Positions 365 to 59,000 of a stretch of 64,000 bases of DNA are shown piece after piece. The notes below the pieces were generated by a model. It did not search any database, was not told the DNA's origin, and was given only the letters and a program-made list of their open reading frames with translations. The DNA comes from Escherichia phage vB_EcoM_011D4, in the sequence record MT478991.1. One strand, given 5' to 3'. Positions within the stretch are counted from its first letter, which is position 1, and the number at the start of each line of letters is the position of its first letter. Made by a program: the position numbers and the translations under genes.

Positions 365-372
365 TATAAATA
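365..372 (+). promoter_or_regulatory. T4-type late promoter TATAAATA
   Basis: Exact TATAAATA 29 nt upstream of the gene 34 ATG, followed by AAGGAG RBS. Confidence 0.6.
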
Positions 373-400: not shown

Positions 401-3400
401 ATGGCAGATTTTTCTCAACATTTCAAGGCCACATTTGGCTTTGACGCTGGTAATGAAAAGGTCGTCAATGTAGCATTGGCTGATAAGAATGTCAACACCG
501 ATGCGGTCAACGTTGAATTTTTCAATTACCATAATGGTATTACTCAGTATGACACAACTCGCGGTTATGATCAATACGGAACTACAATCTATCAAAACCG
601 TCCATATTATGCAAAAGAAGATATCACAAAGCCAGCAGGTGATTTTGACCCGACTAAATGGCAAGCACTGCGCACGGACCCACGTTGGGATTATGTTGCA
701 GCAACTTCCGGTGATACTCCTTTACAGTCTGGTGATTATATCGCAGCAGATGGTCAATTTGCAAACTTGACTTTCTCTATGCCAACTAAACCAGCAGAGG
801 GAGACACTATAACAGTAAAAGATATCGGTGGCAAGTGTGGTGTTAACGAATTATCGTTCTTGAGTTCAGGACATGAGTTTTACCATAACGGTAATGTGTA
901 TAACCGAAAATGGTATTGCACTACCCCGTATGCAATGAACTATTTCATCTTTGTTCGTAATCGTTGGCATGTTTATCAGACAGGAACAGAGCCACGCGGT
1001 GTGTATGCACAGCCAGCGATTGATGCTATTCAAATGCAGAATGGTGATCAGGTATTTCGTCGTAGTTCGTTGGGTAATATTACCTTAGTGCTTCCTAAGT
1101 TTGCCAACAATGGCGACATGATCCAGACTACAGACCTTGACGGATTAACCGCAACCAACCACGTTACGGTTAAAGTTCATGAGCACGCAGAAGAACAATC
1201 AATTGGCACGTCCGGTCTAAAAGAGATTATCGGTAAGCGTAGCGGTCATGGTGTATTCATCTTTGACAAGACGGAAAACTTATGGCGTTTGTGGGATGGT
1301 GATCAGTCTGTTCGTCTTAAACCGATCATCGATGACACTCGCTTGCAACCTAATAGCTATGTTGCCGTATTTGGTGATCGTGATGTTACTCTGACGCTGC
1401 CGACCAATGTCGAGCCGGGTGATCGTATTCAAGTTTCTATGCAGTATATGCACGGAAACCAGAATTGCCGTATTATCACCGCCACAGAGGATACAAAAAT
1501 CCTTATGCAGAAAAACATGGTTCAGTTTCCTAAGCGTAGCGAGTACCCATTCAATGGGACCGATACATGGACGGGAGTATCTGAATTGTCTTTCAACGCT
1601 GCAAATGATTATGTACCTTATCTGGAGTTCTCTTATTCAGAAGGTGATGATGGTAAGAAATACTGGTTGGTGGCACATGCTCACCCGATTGTAGAACGAG
1701 TAGATCCGACTCGTAAAGATCGTGTTGGTGTAATTGCACTGGCTACCCAGGATGAAACAAACAAAAACCATGAAGATAATCCTAGCGACGAAGTTGCGGT
1801 GACTCCAAAGGTTCTGGCTAATAAAACAGCCAACGAAACTCGACGCGGTATTGCTCGCATTGCAACTCAAGCGGAAACGCATCAAGATACTGGTTCCAGC
1901 TTCCTGGATGATGTTATCGTTACGCCTAAAAAGTTAAATAATTGTGTTGCTACCGAAGCCCGTCGTGGTGTGATGGAAATTGCAACCCAGCACGAAACCA
2001 ATGAAGGTTTAGACGATACCCGCGCTATTACTCCTAAGAAATTAGAAGAACGTCGCGCTTCCGAAGATCTCGCTGGTATTGCTGAAATTGTTCAGGCTGG
2101 CGGTAGTGCTGCCGCTCGACGTGGCGAAGCTGGTACAGGGATCTATAACATCAACGACCATGCTAAAATTGTTACGCCACAAAACATCAACGAAGTCAAG
2201 GCGACCGAAACTTCCCGTGGTGTTGGCTATCTGGCAACTGACGCGGAAGTGCAAGGGGCTACAGAATCAACCCCGCAAGATGCTTTACTAATCACGACTC
2301 GCACGCTAACGAAACGTACTGCTACCGAATCGCGCACTGGTATCGCTGAAATTGCAACTCAGGAAGAAACAAACTTAGGTCAAAGTGATAACCATATCAT
2401 CACGCCTAAAAAGCTGCATACTCGCCGCGCAACGGAAACTTTACATGGTTTAGCAGAAATTGCAACTCAACCGGAGTTTGACGCAGGTCTTGACGATGCT
2501 CGCATTTCTACCCCATTGAAGATTAAAACCTTCTTTGAGAATGCACAGCGTTTGAAAGTAGATCCGACTCAGGGGCTTAACCTTACTGGTGATTTGTGGC
2601 AAGGTATCATGATTCGCGGTCTGGACGCAACCGAAGACACAAAAGGTGTCGCTAAAGTTGCTACTACTCAGCTTACGGATGCTGGTCAAGATGATACTAC
2701 AATCATCACGCCTAAAAAGCTGCAAGGCAAAAAGGCCACCGAAGGTAAAGAAGGTATTATCCGAGTTGGTACTCAAGCCGAAACCGTGGCTGGTACACTG
2801 GCTAATGTAGCAATTTCTCCGAAGAACTTCAAATATGTTGTTCAGACAGAGGATACATGGAAAGCAACCGAAGCGCGTCGTGGTTTCTTGAAAGTTGCCA
2901 CTCAGGAAAACTGTTTTGTTGGTGATAATCTGCAAGGTTCTACTCAAGAACTAGGAAACTACCAGCATGACGGAATTGCTGTTACTCCGAAAGGATTAAA
3001 CTACGCACTTGCTAATTTCTTACCTAAGATGGCAACCGCTCAGAATAGTTTGAAATTGGGTAACGTAGAGGCCGCTAAATGGGCGCGTAGAGACATTGAC
3101 CAGACCATAGAGAGCAATTACACGTTTAATAAAAACGTTAACGTGAAGGGCGATTTAGGGTGCTTAAAATCTGGTTCCTTTGAAACTCTGTCTGTGACTA
3201 AGAACTCGACCGATGGTCCGAGTAATGGTCATCTGGTGTTGGGTGAGCGTGGAGTTGACGGTCACACCGGAATTACTCTGCATGGCACAACCGCATCGGA
3301 AGGCATGAAAAACTCGTGGTCTATTATCGTTGGTGGTACTGGAACAGCGCAAGTTGTTGATAGTGATGCTATCGCTTTCGGTAAAATCAATGATGGTGGA

Positions 3401-4141
3401 GTCGTCGAGCATTACGCCTTTGCTATGGAACACAATGGCGACGCGACAGCATATAGAGACTTTATTGCAGGTCGTAACCTGTATGCGAAACAAGGCGGTT
3501 TATACATTGTTGATCAGTCTAATCCGGCAATGACTCGTTCCCCAGATGGTATGCTGAATATCGGTCACGGTGGAAGTGTTAACATCAAGGCAGGTTATCA
3601 AACGTTAACTACAGAGATCGCCGGACAGAAATATCAGATCGTACACGCAGGAAACGCTGACGAAGTTCTTAACCGTCAGTTTGTTAAGAATGCTGGCGAT
3701 ACAATGGTCGGTAAGCTGACTATGGATAATGCGCCTATTGTTTCTGTTAAGCATGAAGCTAGCGCGGCAACCGCTCCAGCAATCGGTAACATCGGTTTCT
3801 GGAATATGCGAGTTACTACCCAGAACATCAAAGAAACTTATCCAGAGAAGAAAAACGGTACTCTGATGCAATGGGGTACTGACGCGGACGGGCTTACCCA
3901 GCTTTGGTCCCCTGATGGTACTCATAAACATTATATCCGTTCCGGTACTGGTGGTCAATGGACTGCATGGGGTGAAATTTACACCAAACAGAATAAGCCT
4001 ACCGCTCAGGAAATCGGGGCAGTAGTTGCAGAAGGTGGTTTAATGAACTCTATGACGGTTCGTGATTGGATCAAAGTTGGTAATGTTAAAATCATCGCCA
4101 ATAATCTGACTCGTACCGTAGACTTTATCTGGGAAGACTAA
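401..4141 (+). CDS. 34: long tail fibre proximal subunit gp34 (1246 aa)
   Basis: Size and motifs match T4 gp34 (VTPKxL...ETRRGIARIATQ repeats, ARISTPLKIKT, conserved C-terminus); first gene of 34-35-36-37 module. Confidence 0.93.
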   Translation: MADFSQHFKATFGFDAGNEKVVNVALADKNVNTDAVNVEFFNYHNGITQYDTTRGYDQYGTTIYQNRPYYAKEDITKPAGDFDPTKWQALRTDPRWDYVAATSGDTPLQSGDYIAADGQFANLTFSMPTKPAEGDTITVKDIGGKCGVNELSFLSSGHEFYHNGNVYNRKWYCTTPYAMNYFIFVRNRWHVYQTGTEPRGVYAQPAIDAIQMQNGDQVFRRSSLGNITLVLPKFANNGDMIQTTDLDGLTATNHVTVKVHEHAEEQSIGTSGLKEIIGKRSGHGVFIFDKTENLWRLWDGDQSVRLKPIIDDTRLQPNSYVAVFGDRDVTLTLPTNVEPGDRIQVSMQYMHGNQNCRIITATEDTKILMQKNMVQFPKRSEYPFNGTDTWTGVSELSFNAANDYVPYLEFSYSEGDDGKKYWLVAHAHPIVERVDPTRKDRVGVIALATQDETNKNHEDNPSDEVAVTPKVLANKTANETRRGIARIATQAETHQDTGSSFLDDVIVTPKKLNNCVATEARRGVMEIATQHETNEGLDDTRAITPKKLEERRASEDLAGIAEIVQAGGSAAARRGEAGTGIYNINDHAKIVTPQNINEVKATETSRGVGYLATDAEVQGATESTPQDALLITTRTLTKRTATESRTGIAEIATQEETNLGQSDNHIITPKKLHTRRATETLHGLAEIATQPEFDAGLDDARISTPLKIKTFFENAQRLKVDPTQGLNLTGDLWQGIMIRGLDATEDTKGVAKVATTQLTDAGQDDTTIITPKKLQGKKATEGKEGIIRVGTQAETVAGTLANVAISPKNFKYVVQTEDTWKATEARRGFLKVATQENCFVGDNLQGSTQELGNYQHDGIAVTPKGLNYALANFLPKMATAQNSLKLGNVEAAKWARRDIDQTIESNYTFNKNVNVKGDLGCLKSGSFETLSVTKNSTDGPSNGHLVLGERGVDGHTGITLHGTTASEGMKNSWSIIVGGTGTAQVVDSDAIAFGKINDGGVVEHYAFAMEHNGDATAYRDFIAGRNLYAKQGGLYIVDQSNPAMTRSPDGMLNIGHGGSVNIKAGYQTLTTEIAGQKYQIVHAGNADEVLNRQFVKNAGDTMVGKLTMDNAPIVSVKHEASAATAPAIGNIGFWNMRVTTQNIKETYPEKKNGTLMQWGTDADGLTQLWSPDGTHKHYIRSGTGGQWTAWGEIYTKQNKPTAQEIGAVVAEGGLMNSMTVRDWIKVGNVKIIANNLTRTVDFIWED
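1736..2830 (+). repeat. in-frame tandem ~40-aa repeats inside gp34 ([I/V]TPKKL...RRATE..G[I/V]AEIATQ.ET..G.DD, about 8-9 copies)
   Basis: Repeated peptide motif read in the gp34 translation; approximate nucleotide span. Confidence 0.6.
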
Positions 4142-4174: not shown

Positions 4175-5314
4175 ATGACACAAGATATAGAATTACGCAA
4201 CACTGGAATTAGGTTTGCGCATTTCGACGAAGACTCTGCGACATTTACCAGCATTTCAGAAAATAACTCTGTGATGTATAAGCTGGAAGTGCGCGGATCT
4301 AATGCGGATTCTACCAAACCAGCAAGAATTAGATTTAATGGAGTGGAGATCGTTGGCACTGGCTATGAAAATGGCCTAAATTTTAAAGTTCTTACTCCAA
4401 CTGGACAACTACACGAAGAAAAGGTATTCTATGGTCGCGGTGCTGTTTTGGCAATGCGTGATTATCTTTCTTTGCTGAAAGGTGATTATATCATTGCGAT
4501 GGCAACTCATGGAGAATTGTTTGCAGATCCGATAAGTGATGTTGTATTTTCTAAGCTGGGATCGGTATCATTCCCGAATCACATTTTGTTACAGCAAATG
4601 CCTCGTGTATCATATGCAGCAATTTATTCTACGAAAATGGGTAAAATTGTTTGTGAGGGTATGCAAGCGACCCACGGGGAAGGACAAGATTCATCTATAC
4701 AAATTGAGAAAGTCTATGATACTATAGATGATCTTGCTATAACAGGAACACCACAACGATTTTTAGATTATCCGGTTGAGTATGTTAGCGAAGATGCCGA
4801 ACATTTCGAGCTAATACAATGGCCTCACGATGAGATCAGCGCACCACTTGAAGATTTTAACATAAAGGCAGGTGACAAACTATCAATATCCTTTGAATTG
4901 TTCCGTGATAGTGCCGCAGCCGCAGCCAACGTAACAGCGCGTTTCTATCACAACTACTTCACCGATGGACAATATAAAACTGGTGTTCGATACAATGCCA
5001 GCAAAAAAGACCAATGGGAAAAGTTTGAAGCAGTCTATACAGTACCGGAAGGTGTCGATGGTGTAGTAACTGGTTGTATCAGATATCCAACCAACTCAAA
5101 TGAAGGTATTGTTAAAATTAGAAACATACTAATAACGCCGATCAGTGGAGTCGTTAAAACTACTGGTCCTACTTCATTTGGTGTTAATGGTGTTAGAACA
5201 ACTCATATTCAGGATAACGGTGATTTTACTAACCCTGTAATGAGTCTTCTTAAACTACCCAGAGATAATAAACACATCACATCCAACAACTTTAAAGAGT
5301 TCGATGTTGATTAA
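4175..5314 (+). CDS. 35: tail fibre hinge connector gp35 (379 aa)
   Basis: Position between 34 and 36; size close to T4 gp35 (372 aa). Confidence 0.75.
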   Translation: MTQDIELRNTGIRFAHFDEDSATFTSISENNSVMYKLEVRGSNADSTKPARIRFNGVEIVGTGYENGLNFKVLTPTGQLHEEKVFYGRGAVLAMRDYLSLLKGDYIIAMATHGELFADPISDVVFSKLGSVSFPNHILLQQMPRVSYAAIYSTKMGKIVCEGMQATHGEGQDSSIQIEKVYDTIDDLAITGTPQRFLDYPVEYVSEDAEHFELIQWPHDEISAPLEDFNIKAGDKLSISFELFRDSAAAAANVTARFYHNYFTDGQYKTGVRYNASKKDQWEKFEAVYTVPEGVDGVVTGCIRYPTNSNEGIVKIRNILITPISGVVKTTGPTSFGVNGVRTTHIQDNGDFTNPVMSLLKLPRDNKHITSNNFKEFDVD

Positions 5315-5324
5315 CATTTTTTAC

Positions 5325-5355
5325 AAGCCGATCCATGTGGTCGGCTTTATTTTTA
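5325..5355 (+). terminator. rho-independent terminator (AAGCCGA-loop-TCGGCTT + T-run)
   Basis: 7-bp stem followed by TTTATTTTTAT directly after the gp35 stop. Confidence 0.7.
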
Positions 5356-5475
5356 TACAGTTGGTTAAAATGTAACCAAAACGAAGAAAGATCTTTAGAA
5401 TAATAGAAAATTTGTTTCGGTTAAAAAATAGTCAGTGCCTACGGCACGTCGCGAAGCGATATTTTGTTAACATTC

Positions 5476-5483
5476 TATAAATA
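5476..5483 (+). promoter_or_regulatory. T4-type late promoter TATAAATA
   Basis: Exact TATAAATA 34 nt upstream of the gene 36 ATG. Confidence 0.6.
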
Positions 5484-5516: not shown

Positions 5517-7007
5517 ATGGCAGATTTGAAATATGGATCTACTGTAGGTGGATCTCCCATTTGGACGCAAGGAAACTTGACGATCCAGCCAGCGGGGGAT
5601 CAGCTTTTCTACAAAGGTCATAAAATCTATACCGCTTTTGATAGACCTTCGGCTACCGATTTTGATGCTGTTAGTGCATCCGAAGGTGGCACATTTCAAA
5701 AGCAAGTTCATTTCGAGGAAGGTTTAAGCGTAGGTAGCGCATCGGCTGGAGAAACCAAAAAGAATGGTATCTTTAAAGGCCAGAGTGATGCCGCTAATTT
5801 TGACGGCGTAAGCTGGGGTTTGCATTCATGGAAGTCAATCGGCTTTGTTAATGCCCGTGATGGCGTTATTATGGCGTATATTGACACCACAACGGGCGAA
5901 TTTAAGTCTAAAGGGACTATCGAAGGGACAACCATTAAAGACACAGGTCAACGCGTCTATAGCCCTGTTAATAAACCAACGAATAATGATTTAGATTTGG
6001 TGTCTCGTCGCGGTGATACTCTCACAGGAACATATAATTTAAACACTGTCACTGTTAAACTATCGGTTGATTCGAAATTAATTGCAAGGGAACGTGATTT
6101 AATTAATTTTGATGCGACTAAGATCTATTATGGTAACGTTCTTGATACGTTGGTATTCCGAAGTAAAGATGAGCCTACCATTTTTGTTAATGGCAGAGAA
6201 GGTCGTTTTTATCACACCAACAATAAACCAACTAAAGCCGATGTTGGGCTAGGCAATGTCACCAATGATGCACAGGTTAAACGTGCTGGTGATATTATGG
6301 AAGGTAACTTGCAAGCGCCTAGAATGTTGGCGACAAACGATCCTGCTGGTCCTAATGAATTGGTTCGTTTGAGCTACTTTGAGAGAAAATCAATGGTAGC
6401 AAATCCAACCATCATTGGAAACGTTGATTGGAACACTCTTATTAATCGCGGTATCTATCGTGTGGAAAATGCTGGGTCGGGTACTAATAAACCGTCTGAT
6501 AGTTATTATAACGGCGTTTTGATGGTATATCGCCCAGAAGATGCGGTCGGTACTCGTCGAATTGTTCAGGTGTATTATCCTGAATCTATTGATCATCCGA
6601 TGTGCTGGCGTTCGTGTTCTAATGAATCATGGACTGCATGGAACTATGTAGATCACCGTAAATTAGCCGATATTCGCTATGTTAACGTAACTGGCGATAC
6701 CATGACAGGACCGTTAACTGTTCCGGCTGCAAACGGTGTTAGAACAGCTAAAACTAACTATAACGGGGATAACTGTTATGCGGCGTTAAGCGGTGCTGAT
6801 GGTACTGCTATGATTCACCGTATTAGTGATATTAAAGGGACCGAAAAGCTGGGGATCACCCACGACTCAAAGGTCGTGTTTTTCCGTTCTAGAAACAATA
6901 CTCAAACCGTGGACCGCTATCAGCTTTATCATGAAGGCAATAAACCTACTCCGGCTGATGTTGGCGCAGTTCCACTTAATGCGGTGATTGATTTTGGTAC
7001 TTTCTAA
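5517..7007 (+). CDS. 36: long tail fibre distal connector gp36 (496 aa)
   Basis: N-terminus MADLKYGSTVGGSPIWTQGN matches T4 gp36 (MADLKVGSTTGGSVIWHQGN); longer than T4 gp36. Confidence 0.85.
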   Translation: MADLKYGSTVGGSPIWTQGNLTIQPAGDQLFYKGHKIYTAFDRPSATDFDAVSASEGGTFQKQVHFEEGLSVGSASAGETKKNGIFKGQSDAANFDGVSWGLHSWKSIGFVNARDGVIMAYIDTTTGEFKSKGTIEGTTIKDTGQRVYSPVNKPTNNDLDLVSRRGDTLTGTYNLNTVTVKLSVDSKLIARERDLINFDATKIYYGNVLDTLVFRSKDEPTIFVNGREGRFYHTNNKPTKADVGLGNVTNDAQVKRAGDIMEGNLQAPRMLATNDPAGPNELVRLSYFERKSMVANPTIIGNVDWNTLINRGIYRVENAGSGTNKPSDSYYNGVLMVYRPEDAVGTRRIVQVYYPESIDHPMCWRSCSNESWTAWNYVDHRKLADIRYVNVTGDTMTGPLTVPAANGVRTAKTNYNGDNCYAALSGADGTAMIHRISDIKGTEKLGITHDSKVVFFRSRNNTQTVDRYQLYHEGNKPTPADVGAVPLNAVIDFGTF

Positions 7008-7011
7008 TTTT

Positions 7012-7037
7012 AGCGGGGAGACAATCCCCGCTTTTCT
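7012..7037 (+). terminator. rho-independent terminator (AGCGGGGA-gacaa-TCCCCGCT + T-run)
   Basis: 8-bp stem then TTTTCT directly after the gp36 stop. Confidence 0.65.
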
Positions 7038-7043
7038 AAATAA
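7036..7043 (+). promoter_or_regulatory. possible variant late promoter CTAAATAA
   Basis: One mismatch to TATAAATA; 35 nt upstream of the gene 37 ATG, same spacing as the two exact late promoters. Confidence 0.3.
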
Positions 7044-7077
7044 TATTATTCTAATAACCGTTTAAGGATTTTATAAA

Positions 7078-9996
7078 ATGGCAGATTTAAGCAGAATCCA
7101 ATTTAAACGTACTAGCACTAAAGGCCGTCGACCTGATGCTGGTACGATGAATCCGGGGGAATTGGCAATCAACCTTGCGGATCAATATCTTCTTACTAAA
7201 AATGATTCCGGTGCTATTATCAATTTAAGTTGTCCTCCGGTTTATGACCGCGATGTTACAATGGCAGGTAAGGTTAAAGGTAATAATTATATCTTAAGTA
7301 AAACCGCTAACTATTTGGAAGACCAGACAGCGCGAGATCTTAACTACTTTGGTGCTTTCCGTACCAATGGTCTTGATGGTCTTCTCGAACTCACGCTAAA
7401 CGTTCCTCATTCTTCTGGTGTTCAGCATGGTCGAGGATTTACTTTCCAGTATGGACACACTGGATCGCGTGTAGAAACTTATGGCTATAATAAAGAAGGT
7501 CAAAAAGCATTTAGCTATAAAATGTATCATGAAGGTGATAAACCAACTCCAGGAGAATTGAACGTTTATAGCAAACAAGAAGTTGACCGTATGTTTGTTA
7601 AGAACGTTAAACTTTCTACAGGTTCTGGTGATATCGTTGAAGGCTATTTTAAATTAGCAACTGCAATGATTCCACAAAACGGTCTTAGCGTATTTTTCCG
7701 TATTCATGGTGGTAACGGATATAACGTTACTGCATACGACCAAGTTGATATTGTAGAAATTGTTATTCGCAGTGGAAATGGTCGCCCTAAAGGTGTTAAC
7801 GTTATTGCATATCGCCGAAATACAAACAAATCATTTGATGTTTTGGCTGTTAATACTTCTGGTGATAACTATGATATCTATGTGAAATATCAGCGTTACA
7901 CTGATAACGTTATTGTTGAATTTGGTAAAAGTGTTGGTGTTAATCTGGTAGTTCATGACGTTCCAGATTTTGTTGCTGAACGTCCTGCTGGCGATAATGT
8001 TATTGGCGGTCGTGCTGTAACTCTTTTTAACACAGAAAATAAGCGTGGTGTGTTGAGTTTTGACGATAACACACAAAACAGCTATGATATTGTTCATATG
8101 AGTAATGATAAAGGTACTGGTCGGAAATATATTCGTAAATTCCGTAGTAACTATAATGAAATGATCTGGCACGAGACGGTTCAAGGTAATACATATCGAT
8201 TGGCAACCGGAACGACTGATGCATCGGAAGTTTTTAGAATTACTAGCCGCACCATGTTTACTGGTAAAGGTGTATTTGATGCCGGACAAAACGTTCTTAG
8301 ATTAGAGCGTCCTAGTAACCAATCAAACTATATTGAATGGCAAGATCGCCGAAATGGTGCTGATGTTCGTCAAGGTTGGATCGGTTTTGGTGGTGCTGAA
8401 ACAAATGACTTCCAATGGTATAGCGATCACGCAAAAAACTCATTCATGTTGGATGCTAACGGTCAATGCTCTATTATTACTGGTGCGACCAAAATTGTAT
8501 ATACCAACGGACAATATTATTCCGCTAACTCTGATGCATATCGTATGATCTATGGCAATTATGGTGCATTCTGGCGTAATGACGGGACTAAAGTTTATCT
8601 TCTGTCTACGGCTGAAAATGACCGTTTTGGTGGCTGGAACGGAAACCGACCATTCATTTACGATCTTACTTCCGGTAACGTTCAATTAGGCGGTGATGGT
8701 AACGAAGATGCATTAACGTTAGAATGTGCTTCTCGTGCCGCTCGCTTTAGTAATGACGTTTACATTAAGAAAGGGCTTTTGACTTTCGACGCTGGGCGCG
8801 CTGGATCTCGCGATTATATTCGATTTAATCATTGGGGTGATAGTAATAATGCCCGTGATAACGTTTTGTACATAGAAGATAGTCAAGGCCGACATTTTAG
8901 CACAGAACGTGCGATGGGTACTGGTGCTCTTAAAGCATACTTCTTAGGCGATCTTGAAGTCGGTGGTAAGTTTACTTGGGGTAAAAATACAGCTACATCT
9001 AGCTTTAATATTCGTGCATGGGGTAATGATTCCCGTAAACAAGTATTAGAATGCGCGGATGAAAGTGGTTGGCATTGGTATACCCAACGTCCAGGCGGTC
9101 CGGGAACAAATGAGATTATATTCAATGTTAACGGGAAAGTTCAATCTCAGGGTTTTGAGACTTCCGGTAATATTAAGATAACTGGACCAGACATTGAGTT
9201 TCGTCGCACTGGCAATAAGCACATCTGGTTTAGAGATCCTGACGGCTTAGAATTGGGTTTGATTTATTGTGACGACAACGGCGTTATTCGTTTCCGTGGT
9301 CAAAAACAAACTCAAGATTGGATATTTGGCAATAAGACGATCCAATTAGGAACTAGTGCTACTGTTAGTGGATCTGGTAACGGTTTGATTCGCGGACAAG
9401 TTCAAGGTGGTGCTTGGACACAATGGAGAGATCGTGCTGCTGGCTTATTGGTTGATTGTCAGAATACCGAAAACTCTGCACATAACGTGTGGAAAGCGAC
9501 ACATTGGGGCAAATTCCACATTGCAGCTATGGGTATTCACGTTTCAGGTGGAAATATAGCAAACGCATTGGCGCGTCTACATGTTAATGATGCAACTTTT
9601 GACCATAGTGCGAGCGGTGACTTCCAGGCAAGCCGTAATGGTAGCTTTAACGATGTTTATATTCGTTCTGATGCTCGCCTTAAAATCAATAAGGAAGAGT
9701 ATAAGGAGAATGCCACCGATAAAGTTAATCGCTTGACTGTGTACACCTACGATAAGGTTAAGTCTTTGACGGACCGCACTGTTATCGCTCATGAAGTTGG
9801 TATTATTGCTCAGGATCTTGAAAAAGAATTGCCGGAAGCAGTAACAACTTCTAAGATCGGCGATCCTGATAAGCCAGAAGAGATCTTAACAATTTCTAAC
9901 TCTGCTGTCAACGCTCTTTTAATTAAGGCGTTTCAGGAAATGAGCGAAGAACTTAAAGCCGTTAAAGCTGAACTAGCGGAACTTAAAAAGAATTAA
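7078..9996 (+). CDS. 37: long tail fibre distal subunit gp37 with C-terminal intramolecular chaperone (S74-type) domain (972 aa)
   Basis: N-terminus ...IQFKRTSTKGRRPDAG..GELAINL matches T4 gp37; C-terminal ~109 aa carries the SDARLK autoproteolysis motif (Ser864, nt 9667-9669) and a coiled-coil tail. Confidence 0.9.
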   Translation: MADLSRIQFKRTSTKGRRPDAGTMNPGELAINLADQYLLTKNDSGAIINLSCPPVYDRDVTMAGKVKGNNYILSKTANYLEDQTARDLNYFGAFRTNGLDGLLELTLNVPHSSGVQHGRGFTFQYGHTGSRVETYGYNKEGQKAFSYKMYHEGDKPTPGELNVYSKQEVDRMFVKNVKLSTGSGDIVEGYFKLATAMIPQNGLSVFFRIHGGNGYNVTAYDQVDIVEIVIRSGNGRPKGVNVIAYRRNTNKSFDVLAVNTSGDNYDIYVKYQRYTDNVIVEFGKSVGVNLVVHDVPDFVAERPAGDNVIGGRAVTLFNTENKRGVLSFDDNTQNSYDIVHMSNDKGTGRKYIRKFRSNYNEMIWHETVQGNTYRLATGTTDASEVFRITSRTMFTGKGVFDAGQNVLRLERPSNQSNYIEWQDRRNGADVRQGWIGFGGAETNDFQWYSDHAKNSFMLDANGQCSIITGATKIVYTNGQYYSANSDAYRMIYGNYGAFWRNDGTKVYLLSTAENDRFGGWNGNRPFIYDLTSGNVQLGGDGNEDALTLECASRAARFSNDVYIKKGLLTFDAGRAGSRDYIRFNHWGDSNNARDNVLYIEDSQGRHFSTERAMGTGALKAYFLGDLEVGGKFTWGKNTATSSFNIRAWGNDSRKQVLECADESGWHWYTQRPGGPGTNEIIFNVNGKVQSQGFETSGNIKITGPDIEFRRTGNKHIWFRDPDGLELGLIYCDDNGVIRFRGQKQTQDWIFGNKTIQLGTSATVSGSGNGLIRGQVQGGAWTQWRDRAAGLLVDCQNTENSAHNVWKATHWGKFHIAAMGIHVSGGNIANALARLHVNDATFDHSASGDFQASRNGSFNDVYIRSDARLKINKEEYKENATDKVNRLTVYTYDKVKSLTDRTVIAHEVGIIAQDLEKELPEAVTTSKIGDPDKPEEILTISNSAVNALLIKAFQEMSEELKAVKAELAELKKN

Positions 9997-10036
9997 GGAA
10001 ACTCCCAGGGAAGGGAACTACTAAGGAGAAACGGCT

Positions 10037-10276
10037 ATGGTCTATAATATCGTCATTGGTGCTTTGTCTAATTTCGGAATGAAATTATTGTCAAAGTTAA
10101 TTAGTGAAAAGATGCTCACTAAAATTTTCTTCTATTGCGCTCGTCGTCTTGCGGCTTATACCAATACGCCAATTGATGATCGTTTTGTGGAAGAACTTTA
10201 TAAGGAGTTTAATAAAGATCAGTCAGAAGATAGCAACGAGCAAAATAAAAATAGTGATAGTCAACTACCTAAATAA
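10037..10276 (+). CDS. hypothetical protein (79 aa), hydrophobic N-terminus and acidic C-terminus
   Basis: ORF track; strong RBS AAGGAGA upstream of ATG; sits between gp37 and holin. Confidence 0.5.
   Translation: MVYNIVIGALSNFGMKLLSKLISEKMLTKIFFYCARRLAAYTNTPIDDRFVEELYKEFNKDQSEDSNEQNKNSDSQLPK
10269..10276 (+). promoter_or_regulatory. possible variant late promoter CTAAATAA
   Basis: Same octamer as upstream of gene 37; 34 nt upstream of the holin ATG. Confidence 0.3.
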
Positions 10277-10309
10277 GAGTACACTGTCATAGTTATCTTA
10301 GGGCATTAT

Positions 10310-10966
10310 ATGCAAGTTTCTGAAAAAGGGAAAGACTTTGCTATCTCAAATGTCCTGCGCGCTATTTTCACAACTAAAAGCACGGAGTTGCTCGTACTTC
10401 GTGTTTTTGCTGCCGTCGTGTTGTCCATATTAGCATTTGTCGTTTATAGTAAAAACGAGTTATTTGCGCTTTATAAAGAGACTCGTTATGAGACTTATGC
10501 TCACGTTCTCCAGGTAGAGAAAGACCGCAATTTTGATAATGCAGCACAGGAGCAGTTACAGATAGTTCATGTGTCGGCTGATGCCGATTTTTCTGCTGTT
10601 TTTAGTTTTCGTCCGAAAAACCTAAACTATTTTGTTGATTTGGTGGCATATGAAGGAAAGCTACCGCATACAATCGATGAAAAAAATTTAGGCGGATTCC
10701 CTATCAATAAAACGAGTGAAGAATATCGTAGACATCTTTTAGGTAAATCCTATTTTACCGATAAAGATTTCCAGTATATTCCATCAAGAGAAAAGAAATT
10801 AGAGAGTATCGATATAGGGGTTATGTATTCTTGTCCTATATTCAATCTCGATAATGTCTATTCTGGTAGTATCTCCATTGCATGGAAGAATAAACCGGAT
10901 ATTGACATTGAGAATTTAGATACTCTTTGCAATCAATCTGCCAGAATCCTCGGAAGGATTAGATAA
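10310..10966 (+). CDS. t: holin (T4 t-type, 218 aa)
   Basis: Same length as T4 T; strong identity to T4 holin (EQLQIVH.S.DADFSAV.SFRPKNLNYFVD..AYEGKLP...RILGR). Confidence 0.92.
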   Translation: MQVSEKGKDFAISNVLRAIFTTKSTELLVLRVFAAVVLSILAFVVYSKNELFALYKETRYETYAHVLQVEKDRNFDNAAQEQLQIVHVSADADFSAVFSFRPKNLNYFVDLVAYEGKLPHTIDEKNLGGFPINKTSEEYRRHLLGKSYFTDKDFQYIPSREKKLESIDIGVMYSCPIFNLDNVYSGSISIAWKNKPDIDIENLDTLCNQSARILGRIR

Positions 10967-18255: not shown

Positions 18256-19257
18256 TTAGTAATGGCTAAAACCTTCGGTTACATCTTCAACCACATAGTA
18301 ACGATGACAGCGCATTTTGGCATTCGCATAATCTTTCGGAATACTTACAACGTGACGAGGATCAACTTTGCATTTAATGATTCGGCCTCGTCCACCGCCA
18401 TAGTGTGGAATATAGTGTTTCGCTGCAACGTGGAGGCCATTAGAGCAAGTGCGATCATCATCTGGGTCAACGTCTTTACGCTTCATTTTAACCGTGCGCC
18501 CTGGGCTATTATCAAACGTATGAGTAAAGAAATCTTTATAATCAACATCAACACGTTTCCATGCATAGAAACAACCATCTTCCCCGATCTCAATGTCGTT
18601 GTGTTCTAAGAAGTCAAACAGACGATCTACCGCCTTACGGCTAGGGTTTTTCTTGCACTTCTCAAAGAAGTTCAGATAGTGCGTATATGGCTTATTCTCT
18701 TTAATAGACTCAACAACTCGACGAGTCAGATTATTATCAAGAACAATATTATGATAATACACAATACCATTTTCGATACGGAAAGCGCCGTGATAATATA
18801 CTTCAACCGCTTTCTTAATGTCAATCAGCGTAATTGCTTTAATAAAATCATTCTGCTTAACTGCTTCCAGTGCTTCCTTAAAGTTAACATGTGATGGATC
18901 AGCAGTATAAACAATGTCACCGCATGTAATAGTAATAAACTTAGTTGAGGCTATGGCTACGATTTTTGAGGTAGTAGTCACGGGCTTTTTTGCGCGTTCA
19001 CCACCTTTTCCTTTACTTGTTTTACGGCGTGCTTTACGTTTTTCTAGTGCCTTGCGACCTTCCGCTACTGCGTCTTTCTGAATCAGTAATACACGGGAGG
19101 CAGTACGACGAGATACCCCAAATGCTGCCGCAAGTGCTTCGCGGGTAGTAAACTTACCTTCGCCCCACTGTTTAGCCAGTTTGATTTGTTTTTCAGAATC
19201 CAGGCATTGAACGTTACGGTCAGAGACGGTGATTTTTGCTTTAGTCATAGTATTCAT
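18256..19257 (-). CDS. rIIB: rIIB protein
   Basis: C-terminal identity to T4 rIIB (KAVDRLFDFL..NDIEI.EDG.FYAWK...FDNSPG..VKM.R..V..DD.TCS.GLHV...VVSIP.DY..AKMR...Y.VVEDVTE.F). Confidence 0.88.
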   Translation of the reverse strand: MNTMTKAKITVSDRNVQCLDSEKQIKLAKQWGEGKFTTREALAAAFGVSRRTASRVLLIQKDAVAEGRKALEKRKARRKTSKGKGGERAKKPVTTTSKIVAIASTKFITITCGDIVYTADPSHVNFKEALEAVKQNDFIKAITLIDIKKAVEVYYHGAFRIENGIVYYHNIVLDNNLTRRVVESIKENKPYTHYLNFFEKCKKNPSRKAVDRLFDFLEHNDIEIGEDGCFYAWKRVDVDYKDFFTHTFDNSPGRTVKMKRKDVDPDDDRTCSNGLHVAAKHYIPHYGGGRGRIIKCKVDPRHVVSIPKDYANAKMRCHRYYVVEDVTEGFSHY

Positions 19258-27733: not shown

Positions 27734-28488
27734 TATAAACCTACCTTCGCTTTCATCAATTCAATCCACGACGCATCAATCGGAAGCCCGTATTTCACGC
27801 GTTCTTTTTGTGCTGGCGTTAAGTTCTCATACTTAGAAAGAGATTCAATCAAAACGCTGGTATATTTTAGCACGATTTCGGTATTGTTTGCAATAGCCTT
27901 AAGTTTTTCCTCTTTCTTGTTGATTTCGCTAAGGGCTTGCTTGAGATCTGCAATTTTCTGATAACGTTCTTCCATACGGAAGAGAGTATTTTTAATCGCT
28001 CGCTCGGCTGCCTCTGCTTTCTCCGGTTCGTTGTGCTTTTTATGGCGCTCGATTGCTAATTTCTTTTCTTCGATTGCCATTTCCTGATTTTTGATGCGAT
28101 TCTCGTTAAGTTCGATCCACTCGATGTACTTCGCACGTAGGGCAATTTCATCATCAGAAAGTTTACCGTTAGTTCCTAGTTCCTGGATCTCTTTAAGAGA
28201 TTCGATAGTGTGATTGCCACGGAAAGAATTGTATTTCAGTTTAACCGGAATTACATTGCCATCAACATATCCCAGATTGCAATCAATGCGCTCTAAGGAG
28301 AGTCCGTCATCACCTTCACCGAAAGCCTCACCTGAATATGCGCAATGAGTCTGACGGTAAATGTTACGCACAGTGACTAAGCTCATAGAGAAGTCTTTGT
28401 TGCGACGTGAAGCGCCAGCCATGATAGAGTTCAGACGGAAAACAACCAGCGCCAATTCTTCGTTAGATTTAAAAGCAAACAGTTTCAT
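27733..28488 (-). CDS. hypothetical protein with degenerate HNH-like motif and coiled-coil C-terminus (251 aa), at the T4 srd position
   Basis: HCAYSGE..(19)..LSLERIDCNLGYVDGNVIPVKLKYNSFRGNH resembles a zinc-finger HNH core with the catalytic His replaced; C-terminal half is E/K-rich helical. Confidence 0.5.
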   Translation of the reverse strand: MKLFAFKSNEELALVVFRLNSIMAGASRRNKDFSMSLVTVRNIYRQTHCAYSGEAFGEGDDGLSLERIDCNLGYVDGNVIPVKLKYNSFRGNHTIESLKEIQELGTNGKLSDDEIALRAKYIEWIELNENRIKNQEMAIEEKKLAIERHKKHNEPEKAEAAERAIKNTLFRMEERYQKIADLKQALSEINKKEEKLKAIANNTEIVLKYTSVLIESLSKYENLTPAQKERVKYGLPIDASWIELMKAKVGL

Positions 28489-38550: not shown

Positions 38551-39129
38551 TTACCACCTTTCTATAATCTTTTTAAGTCGTTTCCTTTCTGTCTGATTCT
38601 TAGTAACACCCGCCAAAAGTTCATCGGTCGCATACGGTTTAATGTGCTTCAATAACTTGTCCATATATCCCTTTTCATTAGCCAAATCGAGATAAAACCG
38701 GGCGTCATCCATATTTACACAATATGCTTTCGCCACTGCCGTTAAAACCAATTTTTGGTCCAATTCTTCTGTTAGTTTAGCCCATTTACCGTATCGTTTC
38801 CCCTTAGAAATACTCTGTAAGAGATAATCAAAATGCATTTGATCTGGGAGGCCATGACCGATTAAATTCATCACATACGCGCTATATAGGCAATCTGCGT
38901 GCTGGGAAAGAGCGGTGTTAATCCATCTCTGGTTATATGCAGAATTGTTTCCCACATTAACGCGCTGTTTATCTAAGGTGATATGATCCATCAGAGCAAA
39001 TAATGCATTGTCGGTTTTCTCGGTGAATGTATCCGCTAATTCAGACACCTTTTCCCAATCACGAGAGCGCCATGCAATTTCATGCTCGTTTAATTGTGTA
39101 TCATCTTCACCGAAAAATTGACCTAACAT
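38551..39129 (-). CDS. 62: clamp loader small subunit gp62
   Basis: Size and position (regA-62-44-45 order as in T4). Confidence 0.8.
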   Translation of the reverse strand: MLGQFFGEDDTQLNEHEIAWRSRDWEKVSELADTFTEKTDNALFALMDHITLDKQRVNVGNNSAYNQRWINTALSQHADCLYSAYVMNLIGHGLPDQMHFDYLLQSISKGKRYGKWAKLTEELDQKLVLTAVAKAYCVNMDDARFYLDLANEKGYMDKLLKHIKPYATDELLAGVTKNQTERKRLKKIIERW

Positions 39130-44980: not shown

Positions 44981-46006
44981 CTAACTTTTTGCGCTATTTA
45001 CTTCGGCTAAAAGTTCATCAGAGATACGCTTAACTGCCGCAAGTTCTTCCGGTTCTAGGTTTTGTTCTTCCAGATATTCATAGACCATCTGAATAGTGCT
45101 TTTAACTTCAATAACACCTGTTTCCTGTGATGCGCTACTCTCCAGCTTATGGACAACTTTTAGCTTATGCACAACGGCTTCTAACGCGCTTTCTAACTTA
45201 GTTAACCCATTATCAGCGACCGTTGCAATTAGGCGCACACTAAGCCCTTTAAAGCGTTCTACATCGATTTTATCATCTGACGGGTAAGCGATACGCACAT
45301 GATAAGTTTTGTCATTCTGGATAAACTCCTTTTTGTGTGTATCTGTATCGAATACCCAAAAACCACGCGGATCATTTTCGTCGCCAGCCGTTAGTGTGTA
45401 TGGTGTACCGATATACGTTACGTTACCGCCATCACTGATAGTATGAAAGTGACCGGAAAACACTTCACGGTATTTCTTGAGGAAGTCCGCGCTATAACCT
45501 TCGGATTTTAACCCTTTATAGAAATAGTAGCCGGACAATTCCCAATGGCCTACACAATATTCGCTGAATGAATTTTGAATAAACTCTAAAACCTCGGATT
45601 TATTGTCATCACAAAACCACGGGAACAGGTCGAATGATACCCCATCAAAGGTAACTGTTTCCGGCTTATCAATAACCTTAATGCAATCATACTGGCTTAA
45701 CACTTCGCGCGGTGCGTTAGGCTGGATCTTATTGCGTTTAAACATATCATGATTCCCGACCGTGATATAACAGGTGATTCCTGCCTCTTCCAGTAATGGG
45801 ATGACCTTAGTACGGTTAAATTTCATGGTTTCATGTGTGATAGCCTTGCGACAATCAAACCAATCCCCTGTTTGAATCCATATCTTAATACCGTTTTCTT
45901 TAGAATAATCAACAGCTTTCTTGATCGTGTCTAAAATATACTCATGCACCCACGGATCATCGCCACCGATACCAGTATGCAGATCACCCAAAAGCAAAAT
46001 TTTCAT
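44981..46006 (-). CDS. 47: recombination endonuclease subunit gp47 (Mre11/SbcD-like phosphoesterase)
   Basis: N-terminal MKILLLGDLHTG calcineurin-like motif; 341 versus 339 aa in T4. Confidence 0.9.
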   Translation of the reverse strand: MKILLLGDLHTGIGGDDPWVHEYILDTIKKAVDYSKENGIKIWIQTGDWFDCRKAITHETMKFNRTKVIPLLEEAGITCYITVGNHDMFKRNKIQPNAPREVLSQYDCIKVIDKPETVTFDGVSFDLFPWFCDDNKSEVLEFIQNSFSEYCVGHWELSGYYFYKGLKSEGYSADFLKKYREVFSGHFHTISDGGNVTYIGTPYTLTAGDENDPRGFWVFDTDTHKKEFIQNDKTYHVRIAYPSDDKIDVERFKGLSVRLIATVADNGLTKLESALEAVVHKLKVVHKLESSASQETGVIEVKSTIQMVYEYLEEQNLEPEELAAVKRISDELLAEVNSAKS

Positions 46007-46050
46007 AGTCTCTTCCTCTCTTCGTTTTCGATGCTCTCACTATATCATAG

Positions 46051-46085
46051 AAAAATAAAAAGGGAAACCCCTTTCGGAGTCTCCC
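46051..46085 (-). terminator. rho-independent terminator (10-bp stem with two G-U pairs + UUUUUAUUUUU)
   Basis: On the minus strand GGGAGACUCC-gaaa-GGGGUUUCCC then a long U-tract, between 46097..46384 and gene 47. Confidence 0.65.
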
Positions 46086-46096
46086 TTATAAAGCCA

Positions 46097-46384
46097 TTAC
46101 AGCATACTTAATACCGTTTGCCGTGTACTAATCCACATAGCAGAAAGCAGTTCTGGCGTGTGTGGCTGTTTGTAGATATCACGTAACTTTCCGATAGCGT
46201 AGATATACGCATCACGGTTATCATCGATGATAGCTTGTTCAGCCCACCGCTTAAGGCGTGCAATCTCTCGCGAGTTCTTACGCAAGATCTTTTCCGCTTT
46301 CTTAGCGGCTTTAGCCTCTAGTTCTGCTTGTACTTTGTCTACTTCATTCACTGCAATCTGGTCATGCTGTTCATCGTAAGTCAT
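46097..46384 (-). CDS. hypothetical protein (95 aa)
   Basis: ORF track. Confidence 0.5.
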   Translation of the reverse strand: MTYDEQHDQIAVNEVDKVQAELEAKAAKKAEKILRKNSREIARLKRWAEQAIIDDNRDAYIYAIGKLRDIYKQPHTPELLSAMWISTRQTVLSML

Positions 46385-46620
46385 GTTATTTTTCCTTCTG
46401 GGATATAATCAATTATTAAAGAAAATTCATCTTCTGATACATTATAGCTATGTGAGATTGTACCCGTAAAGACCTCAAGATCCGGTGATTTGATATTGCA
46501 CGGATCGATAATCACCGGAACGCCGCAATCTCTCAAAAATAATTTGGCGAAATACGGCACGAGGTCAGTTTCAAACTCTGCTTCTTCCAGCAAACGGGAA
46601 ATGTTAATTTTCAATCTCAT
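46381..46620 (-). CDS. hypothetical protein (79 aa)
   Basis: ORF track. Confidence 0.5.
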
Positions 46621-47137
46621 AAAATTGGTCCAGGCTAGGCAATTCCTCGGTCAATACATCTTCAACCTTTGGCGCTTTCGGTTTATTGACCGATTCCTCG
46701 TAGTTGTTGATTTTATCGTAAATGTCCTGTATGAATGCCTCATCAGCAATCTGGCACATATCAGCGTCGCGTTCGTCATATACATGATGCACAAAATATT
46801 TGTATTTTGCGGCTGTCGCTGTTCTCTCTTTTTTAATGCGCTGTACAAAAGCATTAAAGCACGCTTGCGTGATGTAAGCATGAGGATTTTTATACTTTGT
46901 CTCGTCAAAATTAATCAAACCCTTGACCGCCGCTTCGATTCCGTCGTCGATCATTTCTTCGCGCCATGTTTGACTATAGCCAGAAAAGTTAAAACGTCGT
47001 GATAGATTTTTTGAGATTTGCATAATTGCCAGGCCAATTTGATCGCTCATTGGCACTTGCCGACCTTCGGCTGCAATTCGTTGTTTCCAACGGCAAATTT
47101 CTTCGTAAAGCTCTTTATTGTTTACATAATCAGACAC
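46604..47137 (-). CDS. 55: late-transcription sigma factor gp55
   Basis: Very high identity to T4 gp55 (IGLAIM.I...[52 protein letters not shown]); apparent GTG start with GAGGG RBS. Confidence 0.93.
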
Positions 47138-47177
47138 TTCGCACCCTCGCTATTATTTAGGAAATAACCCTTTCGGG

Positions 47178-58682: not shown

Positions 58683-58706
58683 AAATTCACCCTCCAAAGA
58701 AGGTAT

Positions 58707-59000
58707 TTAACCATGAATCTTGTTTTTGACTACAAAGGATCGGAACTCATCAAAGCCACCAATATAATCACCATCATAGAAAATCTGCGGCATGGTGGCA
58801 ATAACTTCTACCCCTGCGCGATCCTGAATATCGGCAATGATAGAATCAATCTTTACGGGGCGACCGTTTTCGTCAACACCATCATTAACCGGAATGTAGA
58901 TGTAAGGGATCTTACGCGATTCACAAAGGCGCTTTGCATTCTGGCAATACTTACAGTTGTAACCTTCAAAACCAAAAATTTCTACCATATTATACCTCAA
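58707..59000 (-). CDS. nrdC: glutaredoxin/thioredoxin NrdC
   Basis: C.YC.NAKRL and MPQIF.DG..IGGFD motifs shared with T4 NrdC. Confidence 0.8.
   Translation of the reverse strand: MRYNMVEIFGFEGYNCKYCQNAKRLCESRKIPYIYIPVNDGVDENGRPVKIDSIIADIQDRAGVEVIATMPQIFYDGDYIGGFDEFRSFVVKNKIHG

Follow-up and report, generated by a model that had tools for sequence, protein, structure and literature searches.

Genes 37 (g37) and t of Escherichia phage vB_EcoM_011D4 are preceded by sites that are probably working variants of the T4-type late promoter. The window, meaning the whole 64,000-nt stretch of DNA analysed here (MT478991.1), comes from a Krischvirus, i.e. an RB49-like phage of the T4 type, and the two boxes are likely to be gp55-dependent late promoters carrying C at -12 of the canonical box TATAAATA, which in T4 spans -13 to -6 (PMC1524935). 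The initial annotation had proposed variant late promoters at these sites, and this is supported by position statistics, avoidance of the core hexamer, conservation and identity with an annotated RB49 site; from the sequence we further infer that gp55-RNA polymerase recognises them, where transcription starts, and what effect they may have on expression level. Because the variant is found repeatedly in the lineage and has a counterpart among the annotated late promoters of RB49, the two boxes are a modest gain in annotation and not a new mechanism. The features concerned are the following:

365..372, + strand: canonical late box of g34, TATAAATA, 28 nt upstream of its ATG (401); homologous RB49 site at 145003-145010
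5476..5483, + strand: canonical late box of g36, TATAAATA, 33 nt upstream of its ATG (5517); homologous RB49 site
7005-7007, + strand: g36 stop codon
7012..7032, + strand: terminator-like hairpin with an 8-bp GC-rich stem and a 5-nt loop, followed by UUUCU
7035..7042, + strand: predicted variant late box of g37, TCTAAATA (-13 to -6), with C at -12
7048, + strand: predicted g37 transcription start (A), from T4 geometry (PMC1524935) and sequence; 30-nt leader
7064..7068, + strand: g37 Shine-Dalgarno sequence AAGGA, at 9 nt from the ATG, invariant in alignment A1
7078..9996, + strand: gene 37, distal subunit of the long tail fibre, 972 aa
10037..10276, + strand: dc5-like ORF between g37 and t, 79 aa, phrog_402, function unknown
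10268..10275, + strand: predicted variant late box of t, CCTAAATA (-13 to -6), with C at -13 and -12
10281, + strand: predicted t transcription start (A), from T4 geometry and sequence; 29-nt leader
10310..10966, + strand: gene t, holin, 218 aa (phrog_860, E 1.4e-87)
46607-47137, - strand: gene 55 ORF (late sigma factor), 61% identical to T4 gp55 (E 5e-78)
47154..47161, - strand: third copy of CCTAAATA, in an intergenic position 16 nt upstream of the gene 55 GTG start (47137)

The gene identities given initially were upheld, with t assigned to the holin family phrog_860 and g36 and g37 to tail-fibre families. A Pfam search returned no match for the gp55 or the dc5-like ORF of the window, and the identity of gp55 was established through direct comparison with T4 gp55.

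Both variant sites had originally been described as an octamer CTAAATAA standing in place of the canonical box found before g34 and g36, and as far as location is concerned this was correct. In exact form, CTAAATAA occurs three times in the window, twice on the + strand (7036-7043, 10269-10276) and once on the - strand (47153-47160), and the only two copies of TATAAATA within the 64 kb are exact matches at 365-372 and 5476-5483, before g34 and g36, respectively. Promoters at the RB49 homologues of these two canonical boxes were predicted previously (Nolan 2006, PMC1524935). The octamer ends 34 nt before the g37 ATG (7078) and 33 nt before the t ATG (10310), gaps that were given as 35 and 34 nt under the earlier counting. 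The register, however, is one base off: aligned to TATAAATA, the proper boxes are TCTAAATA for g37 (7035-7042, 7/8 matches) and CCTAAATA for t (10268-10275, 6/8 matches), each with an intact TAAATA core. As a new octamer, CTAAATAA was rejected, since its bare count in the window shows no enrichment (3 copies, with 4.4 expected by chance) and its trailing A is not kept in the divergent contig L008 (CCTAAATAT). Judged by its letters, the variant before g37 and t is an A-to-C change at -12 of TATAAATA, i.e. NCTAAATA, and no new octamer. On the coding strand, the TAAATA core ends 35 nt (g37) and 34 nt (t) before the ATG, compared with 28 nt for g34 and 33 nt for g36, and the variant boxes thus share their start-codon distance with the canonical ones. 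Within the 14 nt after the box, A or T occupies 13 positions for g37, 8 for t, 11 for g34 and 9 for g36, and an A/T-rich segment at this place has been described for T4 late promoters. No sigma70-type promoter turned up immediately upstream of g37 or t on the + strand.

The core hexamer is strongly avoided. TAAATA occurs 13 times in the window, where 73.7 +/- 8.4 copies are expected (obs/exp 0.18, about 5-fold depleted), and it is the most depleted A4T2 hexamer both here (0.18) and in RB49 (0.33). Stop-codon content was ruled out as the cause, as TAATAA and TAAAAT are found at an obs/exp of ~1.0. Given this strong depletion, the surviving copies are mostly meaningful. All three CTAAATA copies of the window are located on the coding strand 16-35 nt upstream of starts (g37, t and g55), a placement with P ~8e-5 when the background is taken as ~4.3% of strand positions, a value derived from the RB49 annotation. 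For RB49 itself, TAAATA copies were sorted by the base at -12 and compared with 278 annotated starts, counting those 10-60 nt upstream, a span that was fixed only once the data had been seen. With A at -12, 21 of 31 copies are so placed (P = 6.5e-22); with C (NCTAAATA), the fraction is 6/13 (P = 8.6e-6), the six sites belonging to g55, endolysin, uvsY.-2, g26, g37 and t. The counts for G (1/9) and T (1/10) are at chance level, and among the 31 NCTAAATA copies of T4 not one stands 10-60 nt upstream of an annotated start. The C class is therefore not a product of AT-rich intergenic composition, and AT-rich spacers were discarded as the source of the positional enrichment on the basis of both the G/T and the T4 counts. 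Away from promoter positions, TAAATA is purged ~5-fold in RB49 regardless of the base at -12, and stands at 0.6-1.0-fold in T4.

The g37 box is directly adjoined by a conserved hairpin, AGCGGGGA-GACAA-TCCCCGCT (7012-7032; -15.7 kcal/mol, z = -4.2), which is followed by UUUCU. In alignment A1 its stem is invariant and its loop varies in sequence and length, and the structure is annotated as a terminator in the ARNOLD-based annotations of G37-3 and G2494. The invariant stem with its variable loop bears out the argument that a putative terminator at 7012 favours a promoter of its own for g37. Between the g37 stop (9996), the dc5-like ORF and t, no terminator was found. Own promoter or read-through had been offered as alternatives, but for t the two need not exclude each other: as nothing terminator-like separates it from g37, t is probably served by its own box and also reached by read-through of transcripts from the g37 promoter.

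Read-through as the sole source of both transcripts is unlikely. On this account, the boxes would be inactive look-alikes, g37 being transcribed from the g36 promoter through a leaky hairpin and t from further upstream. Leaky termination is conceivable, because the stem is trailed by just four U's and then C (UUU(U)CU) and was not called by a simple consensus terminator scan; the lack of a terminator between g37 and t, the position of g37 in T4 and T2, 8 nt after g36 and without an own promoter, and the absence of the RB49 g37 and t sites from earlier promoter predictions (Nolan 2006, PMC1524935) point the same way. However, read-through gives no reason why all three window copies of NCTAAATA and 6-7 of the 13 in RB49 stand at promoter distance when the G and T variants do not, why a strongly avoided hexamer survives exactly there, or why CCTAAATA persists despite indels in L008, and the octamer of the g37 box is annotated as a late promoter of RB49 gene 32.

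The variant boxes are embedded in well conserved sequence. Positions 7025-7085 are kept at an identity of at least 95% in 58 Krischvirus records, 44 of which reach at least 99%, and positions 10256-10316 are kept in 57. Even where identity in the flanking coding sequences of g36 and g37 is down to 75-80%, the intergenic region is invariant save for the hairpin loop. Conservation does not single out C(-12), since Krischvirus genomes are very alike across these intergenic regions. Scans of IMG/VR and metagenomes for divergent relatives yielded few loci, of which L008 was informative: here, deletions of 17 nt and 5 nt flank the t box on either side, and TACCTAAATA is kept exactly. The stop codon of the dc5-like ORF overlaps or adjoins the t box, which is partly constrained by it; in L008 this stop is a different TAA of the motif. 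Most gp37 matches in the scans are prophage-sized contigs that have only residues 71-200 in common.

Conservation of the entire junction could have other causes, and it has been considered that these blocks serve as a tail-fibre recombination junction, in mRNA processing or stability, or as translation signals, with TAAATA incidental. The invariance of the entire 70-nt g36-g37 spacer between coding flanks at 75-80% would fit a linker between exchangeable modules, as would gp37 segments common to unrelated prophage-sized contigs. Such a junction may still contain a promoter, though, and another role accounts neither for the genome-wide positional enrichment of NCTAAATA with its unrelated g55, endolysin and g26 sites nor for an unchanged box between changed flanks in L008, so that we regard it as improbable. 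Chance, i.e. two AT-rich octamers in AT-rich spacers, agrees with an octamer count at expectation (3 vs 4.4 in the window) and is nevertheless already disfavoured by the statistics and very improbable, given the positional P values (~8e-5 in the window, 8.6e-6 in RB49), the different placement of equally AT-rich G/T(-12) variants and the 0/31 of T4, where AT-rich spacers alone do not yield such matches.

In Krischvirus, the late machinery seems to rely mainly on the TAAATA core; at -12, A is the most frequent base and C regularly takes second place. Transcripts would be expected to begin ~6 nt past the box, near 7048 for g37 and near 10281 for t, and to have leaders of ~30 nt in which the Shine-Dalgarno sites are normal. 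Transcription would be restarted from the g37 promoter right after the hairpin, at which the g36 transcript would be ended or attenuated, and the t promoter would add to read-through from the g37 promoter, as there is no intervening terminator. A literature search found no Krischvirus transcriptome. Of the expected protein components, gp55 is encoded in the window, and the RB49 annotation includes gp33 and gp45. One 30-residue segment of gp55 is identical between T4 and the window phage, and no change in that segment can therefore explain a relaxed preference at -12.

A wider reading is possible but doubtful, namely that Krischvirus has a lineage-specific relaxed box, N[A/C]TAAATA, in which TAAATA is the real determinant and C(-12) marks a deliberately tuned class. 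If true, the box grammar of Krischvirus would lie between those of T4 (TATAAATA) and Aeh1 (CTAAATA), and the C(-12) class would serve the holin gene t, endolysin, the sigma gene 55, gene 32 and uvsY.-2, in addition to g26 and g37. Because the conserved gp55 segment is identical to that of T4, the specificity difference would have to reside in another part of gp55, in gp33 or in the DNA context. The contrast between RB49 and T4, both in the purge of TAAATA away from promoters and in the placement of NCTAAATA copies (6-7/13 against 0/31 at promoter distance), speaks for this reading. 

Tolerance of C at -12 in Krischvirus, apparently not shared by T4, would offer a natural way into the question of how the upstream half of the box is read by gp55, and also into the setting of lysis-gene dosage. 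Several RB49-like phages have been employed in phage therapy or suggested for it. Assigning promoters to the g37 and t sites, which are absent from the published RB49 promoter list, would improve the transcription map of this group, with the receptor-binding fibre gene g37 as its own late unit apart from g36 and the holin gene with a late start of its own.

Among known systems, the closest counterpart is found in RB49, where TCTAAATA at 142181-142188 (NC_005066) is annotated as 'late RB49 promoter' before gene 32 and represents a seventh C(-12) site. The label 'hypothetical late promoter' is used for other sites of that record, but not for this one. Desplats, in 2002, is said to have mapped the gene 32 late promoter of RB49. 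It shares with the g37 box the identical octamer, the genus and the same presumed machinery, and differs in lying ~236 nt upstream of g32, within gene 59, whereas the g37 and t boxes are 30-35 nt from the start. The gene 32 site was also predicted as a late promoter by Nolan 2006 (PMC1524935), in which no promoter is listed before RB49 g37 or t and C at -12 is called rare outside Aeh1. In this Aeromonas phage, the late promoter consensus is CTAAATA (Nolan 2006, PMC1524935), the same heptamer, beginning at -12, as in the C(-12) boxes of Krischvirus. The two differ in that C(-12) is the consensus in Aeh1 and its gp55 is strongly diverged, while the putative recognition segment of Krischvirus gp55 equals that of T4; the promoter-positioned boxes of RB49 (21 with A, 6-7 with C) are not an Aeh1-type set dominated by C at -12. 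The gp55/gp33/gp45-dependent late promoters of T4 resemble the sites described here in their TAAATA core and independence of a -35 element, and the g37 site, with A or T at 13 of 14 positions (8 of 14 for t), also in an A/T-rich downstream segment. Single-base variants of the T4 late box are known to work, the common one having A at -13. Unlike T4, with 0/31 NCTAAATA copies at promoter distance, the window phage has C at -12, and its t box shows two deviations. In both T4 and T2, t is preceded at 17 nt by a late box (TATAAATA and AATAAATA, respectively), and g36 by a hairpin-plus-box module. The T4 g36 module, gagggagccttcgggttccctttttctt-TATAAATA, and that of g37 in the window, AGCGGGGAGACAATCCCCGCTTT-TCTAAATA, are built alike from a GC-rich hairpin, a T run and then the box. 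In T4 and T2, g37 follows g36 after 8 nt and has no box, whereas in the window the module stands between the two genes, by which g37 would become a late unit of its own.

The octamers before genes 37 and t of Escherichia phage vB_EcoM_011D4 are best filed as predicted, previously unlisted members of the known late promoter class recognised through gp55, the late sigma factor. By sequence, the 4-kb region matches the RB49-like coliphage type (genus Krischvirus, Straboviridae), with E26 (96%), ELT3 (94%) and RB49 (~89%) as top matches. PHROG matches back the tail-fibre protein and holin identities, and minus-strand early genes come after t. The features are as follows.

401-4141, ORF, g34
4175-5314, ORF, g35
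5517-7007, ORF, g36
7036-7043, exact CTAAATAA before g37
7064-7068, ribosome-binding site of g37 (AAGGA)
7078-9996, ORF, g37
10037-10276, dc5-like ORF, 79 aa
10269-10276, exact CTAAATAA before t
10300-10303, ribosome-binding site of t (AGGG)
10310-10966, ORF, holin t
47153-47160, minus strand, third exact CTAAATAA

The 79-aa ORF is a conserved homologue of RB49 dc5/p252 (phrog_402), for which a Pfam search gave no match. It occupies the g37-t interval, whereas T4 and T2 carry gene 38 at that place; a gp38-like adhesin is annotated elsewhere in RB49 (45367-46143). The N-proximal residues 71-200 of gp37 (7288-7677) show 72-82% protein identity to ORFs on ~20 IMG/VR contigs (loci L010-L027), mostly prophage-sized at ~9-45 kb, which suggests that tail-fibre modules have been exchanged with temperate phages.

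The initial annotation had placed CTAAATAA upstream of g37 and t as putative late promoters and a terminator at 7012 after g36. Both copies are exact, the octamer-to-start distances quoted are correct, and 7012-7032 folds into a hairpin at -15.7 kcal/mol (z = -4.2). The promoter interpretation appears largely right on sequence grounds, with the register corrected and read-through added for t. Aligned to TATAAATA, which has only two copies in 64 kb (upstream of g34 and g36), the g37 box is TCTAAATA (7035-7042), with A to C at -12, and the t box is CCTAAATA (10268-10275), with A to C at -12 plus T to C at -13; the TAAATA core is unchanged in both. Counted simply as an octamer, CTAAATAA shows no enrichment in the window (3 observed vs 4.4 expected).

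The position of such boxes was assessed by a census of the full RB49 genome (NC_005066; 278 annotated start codons), in which every NNTAAATA was sorted by its -12 base. A copy counted as lying at promoter distance when a start on its own strand followed 10-60 nt downstream; 4.3% of strand positions satisfy this, and that share served as the background.

RB49 copies at promoter distance, by base at -12
A: 21/31, P = 6.5e-22
C: 6/13, P = 8.6e-6
G: 1/9, chance
T: 1/10, chance

The six C(-12) sites at promoter distance lie upstream of g55 (16 nt), the endolysin gene (25 nt), uvsY.-2 (18 nt), g26 (30 nt), g37 (35 nt) and t (34 nt). A seventh C(-12) site, TCTAAATA at 142181-142188, is exactly the feature ahead of gene 32 that carries the label 'late RB49 promoter', whereas other sites in the record are labelled 'hypothetical late promoter'. 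RB49 transcription was reportedly analysed experimentally by Desplats and colleagues in 2002. Among the 17 RB49 late promoters predicted earlier, which include the g34, g36 and g32 sites, none lies upstream of g37 or t (Nolan et al., 2006; PMC1524935). Each of the three CTAAATA copies in the window stands at promoter distance from a start, namely that of g37, t or g55. The g55 ORF is 61% identical to T4 gp55, and its CCTAAATA box (47154-47161, minus strand) lies in a spacer 16 nt before the GTG start (47137) and is kept in RB49 (28081-28088). This box could act as a late promoter and so create positive feedback on gp55, but its transcript would have a leader of only ~10 nt. Two more candidates for variant boxes, carrying T or G at -12, are GTTAAATA (58704-58711, minus strand), 21 nt before the ATG (58682) of gene 49 (endonuclease VII), and TGTAAATA (38712-38719, minus strand), within gene 62 and the counterpart of the RB49 'hypothetical late promoter' at 19079-19086. 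A minus-strand late promoter predicted as strong in the g35-g36 spacer (score 15.4; Nolan et al., 2006; window about 5340-5382, RB49 149979-150021, both minus strand) has the sequence TATAAAAATA, which lacks the TAAATA core and would point antisense into g35.

TAAATA itself is strongly depleted, with 13 copies in the window vs 73.7 +/- 8.4 expected, and no other hexamer of the same base composition is as depleted (observed/expected 0.18 in the window, 0.33 in RB49). Since other hexamers containing TAA are near 1.0, a stop-codon artefact is ruled out. Plus-strand copies surviving in the first 11 kb lie upstream of g34, g36, g37 and t, with one more within g34. The few hexamers more depleted than TAAATA are restriction-site-like words. 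Eleven 6-bp palindromic restriction sites have zero copies where 16-58 are expected (AAGCTT, GAATTC, GGATCC, CAGCTG, CCATGG, AGCGCT, AGGCCT, AGTACT, ACCGGT, CCGCGG and GGTACC), two asymmetric words, CTGAAG and ACTGGG, are likewise absent, and GACATC (1 vs 32 expected) and CGATCG (2 vs 30) are rare, which looks like strong restriction-site avoidance.

Placed by T4 geometry (box at -13 to -6), g37 transcription would start near A7048 with a 30-nt leader, and t transcription near A10281 with a 29-nt leader. The g37 box directly adjoins the hairpin's T run. Neither a hairpin nor a T run was found from the g37 stop to dc5/t, and read-through from the g37 promoter probably reaches t as well; the initial annotation had posed an own promoter and read-through as alternatives, but for t the latter would be an additional contribution. 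The t promoter may be the weaker of the two, because its melting segment is 8/14 A/T (13/14 for g37) and its box deviates twice.

Both spacers are highly conserved among Krischvirus records: 7025-7085 is at least 95% identical in 58/58 (at least 99% in 44) and 10256-10316 in 57/57 (at least 99% in 39), a uniformity too great for conservation to isolate the C at -12 itself. From hairpin stem to g37 ATG the spacer is invariant even where the g36/g37 coding flanks have drifted to 75-80%; the loop alone varies (GACAA, TTATC, TTCTC, TTC, TTA), a sequence signature of a structural hairpin. In the divergent IMG/VR contig L008, the dc5-like ORF is clearly diverged in nucleotide alignment, and deletions of 17 nt immediately before and 5 nt after the t box leave TACCTAAATA exact. 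Its ORF stops at another TAA of the t-box motif, so retention of the box is not explained by coding constraint alone.

Related phages offer several parallels. In T4 and T2, the module upstream of g36 likewise consists of hairpin, T run and TATAAATA, whereas their g36-g37 gap is 8 nt without a box; Krischvirus has an additional unit boundary there, and its g36 is far larger (496 aa). A late box lies 17 nt upstream of t in T4 and T2 (TATAAATA and AATAAATA), which makes it the norm in this family for the holin gene to have a late promoter of its own. At the g37-g38 junction of T4, the hairpin gaggggcttcggcccct is followed by TCTAAATA and TG (5647-5673 in locus L051, from RB55, a phage of the T4 species; about 159642-159649 in T4, NC_000866). 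The same string of hairpin and TCTAAATA is found between g36 and g37 in Krischvirus; at the T4 junction, however, the box overlaps the ATG of g38 and therefore cannot serve that gene. Late promoter variants are already documented in T4. In the same census, T4 has 225 TAAATA copies, with 28/65 NATAAATA (P = 1e-21) and 0/31 NCTAAATA at promoter distance, and its avoidance of TAAATA is mild (observed/expected 0.6-1.0 depending on the -12 base), whereas RB49 is purged ~5-fold for every -12 base, promoter-positioned copies set aside. Therefore, C(-12) use and the strong purge of the bare hexamer look like Krischvirus traits. Purging whatever the two preceding bases also suggests that the Krischvirus late machinery depends less on -13/-12 than that of T4; a 30-residue gp55 segment is identical in T4 and this phage, and no cause of any specificity difference is visible within it. 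In Aeh1 the consensus is CTAAATA, C at -12 being called rare elsewhere (Nolan et al., 2006); an Aeh1-type system is ruled out for the g37 and t sites because A(-12) remains dominant. The present sites have their octamer in common with the annotated late promoter of RB49 gene 32.
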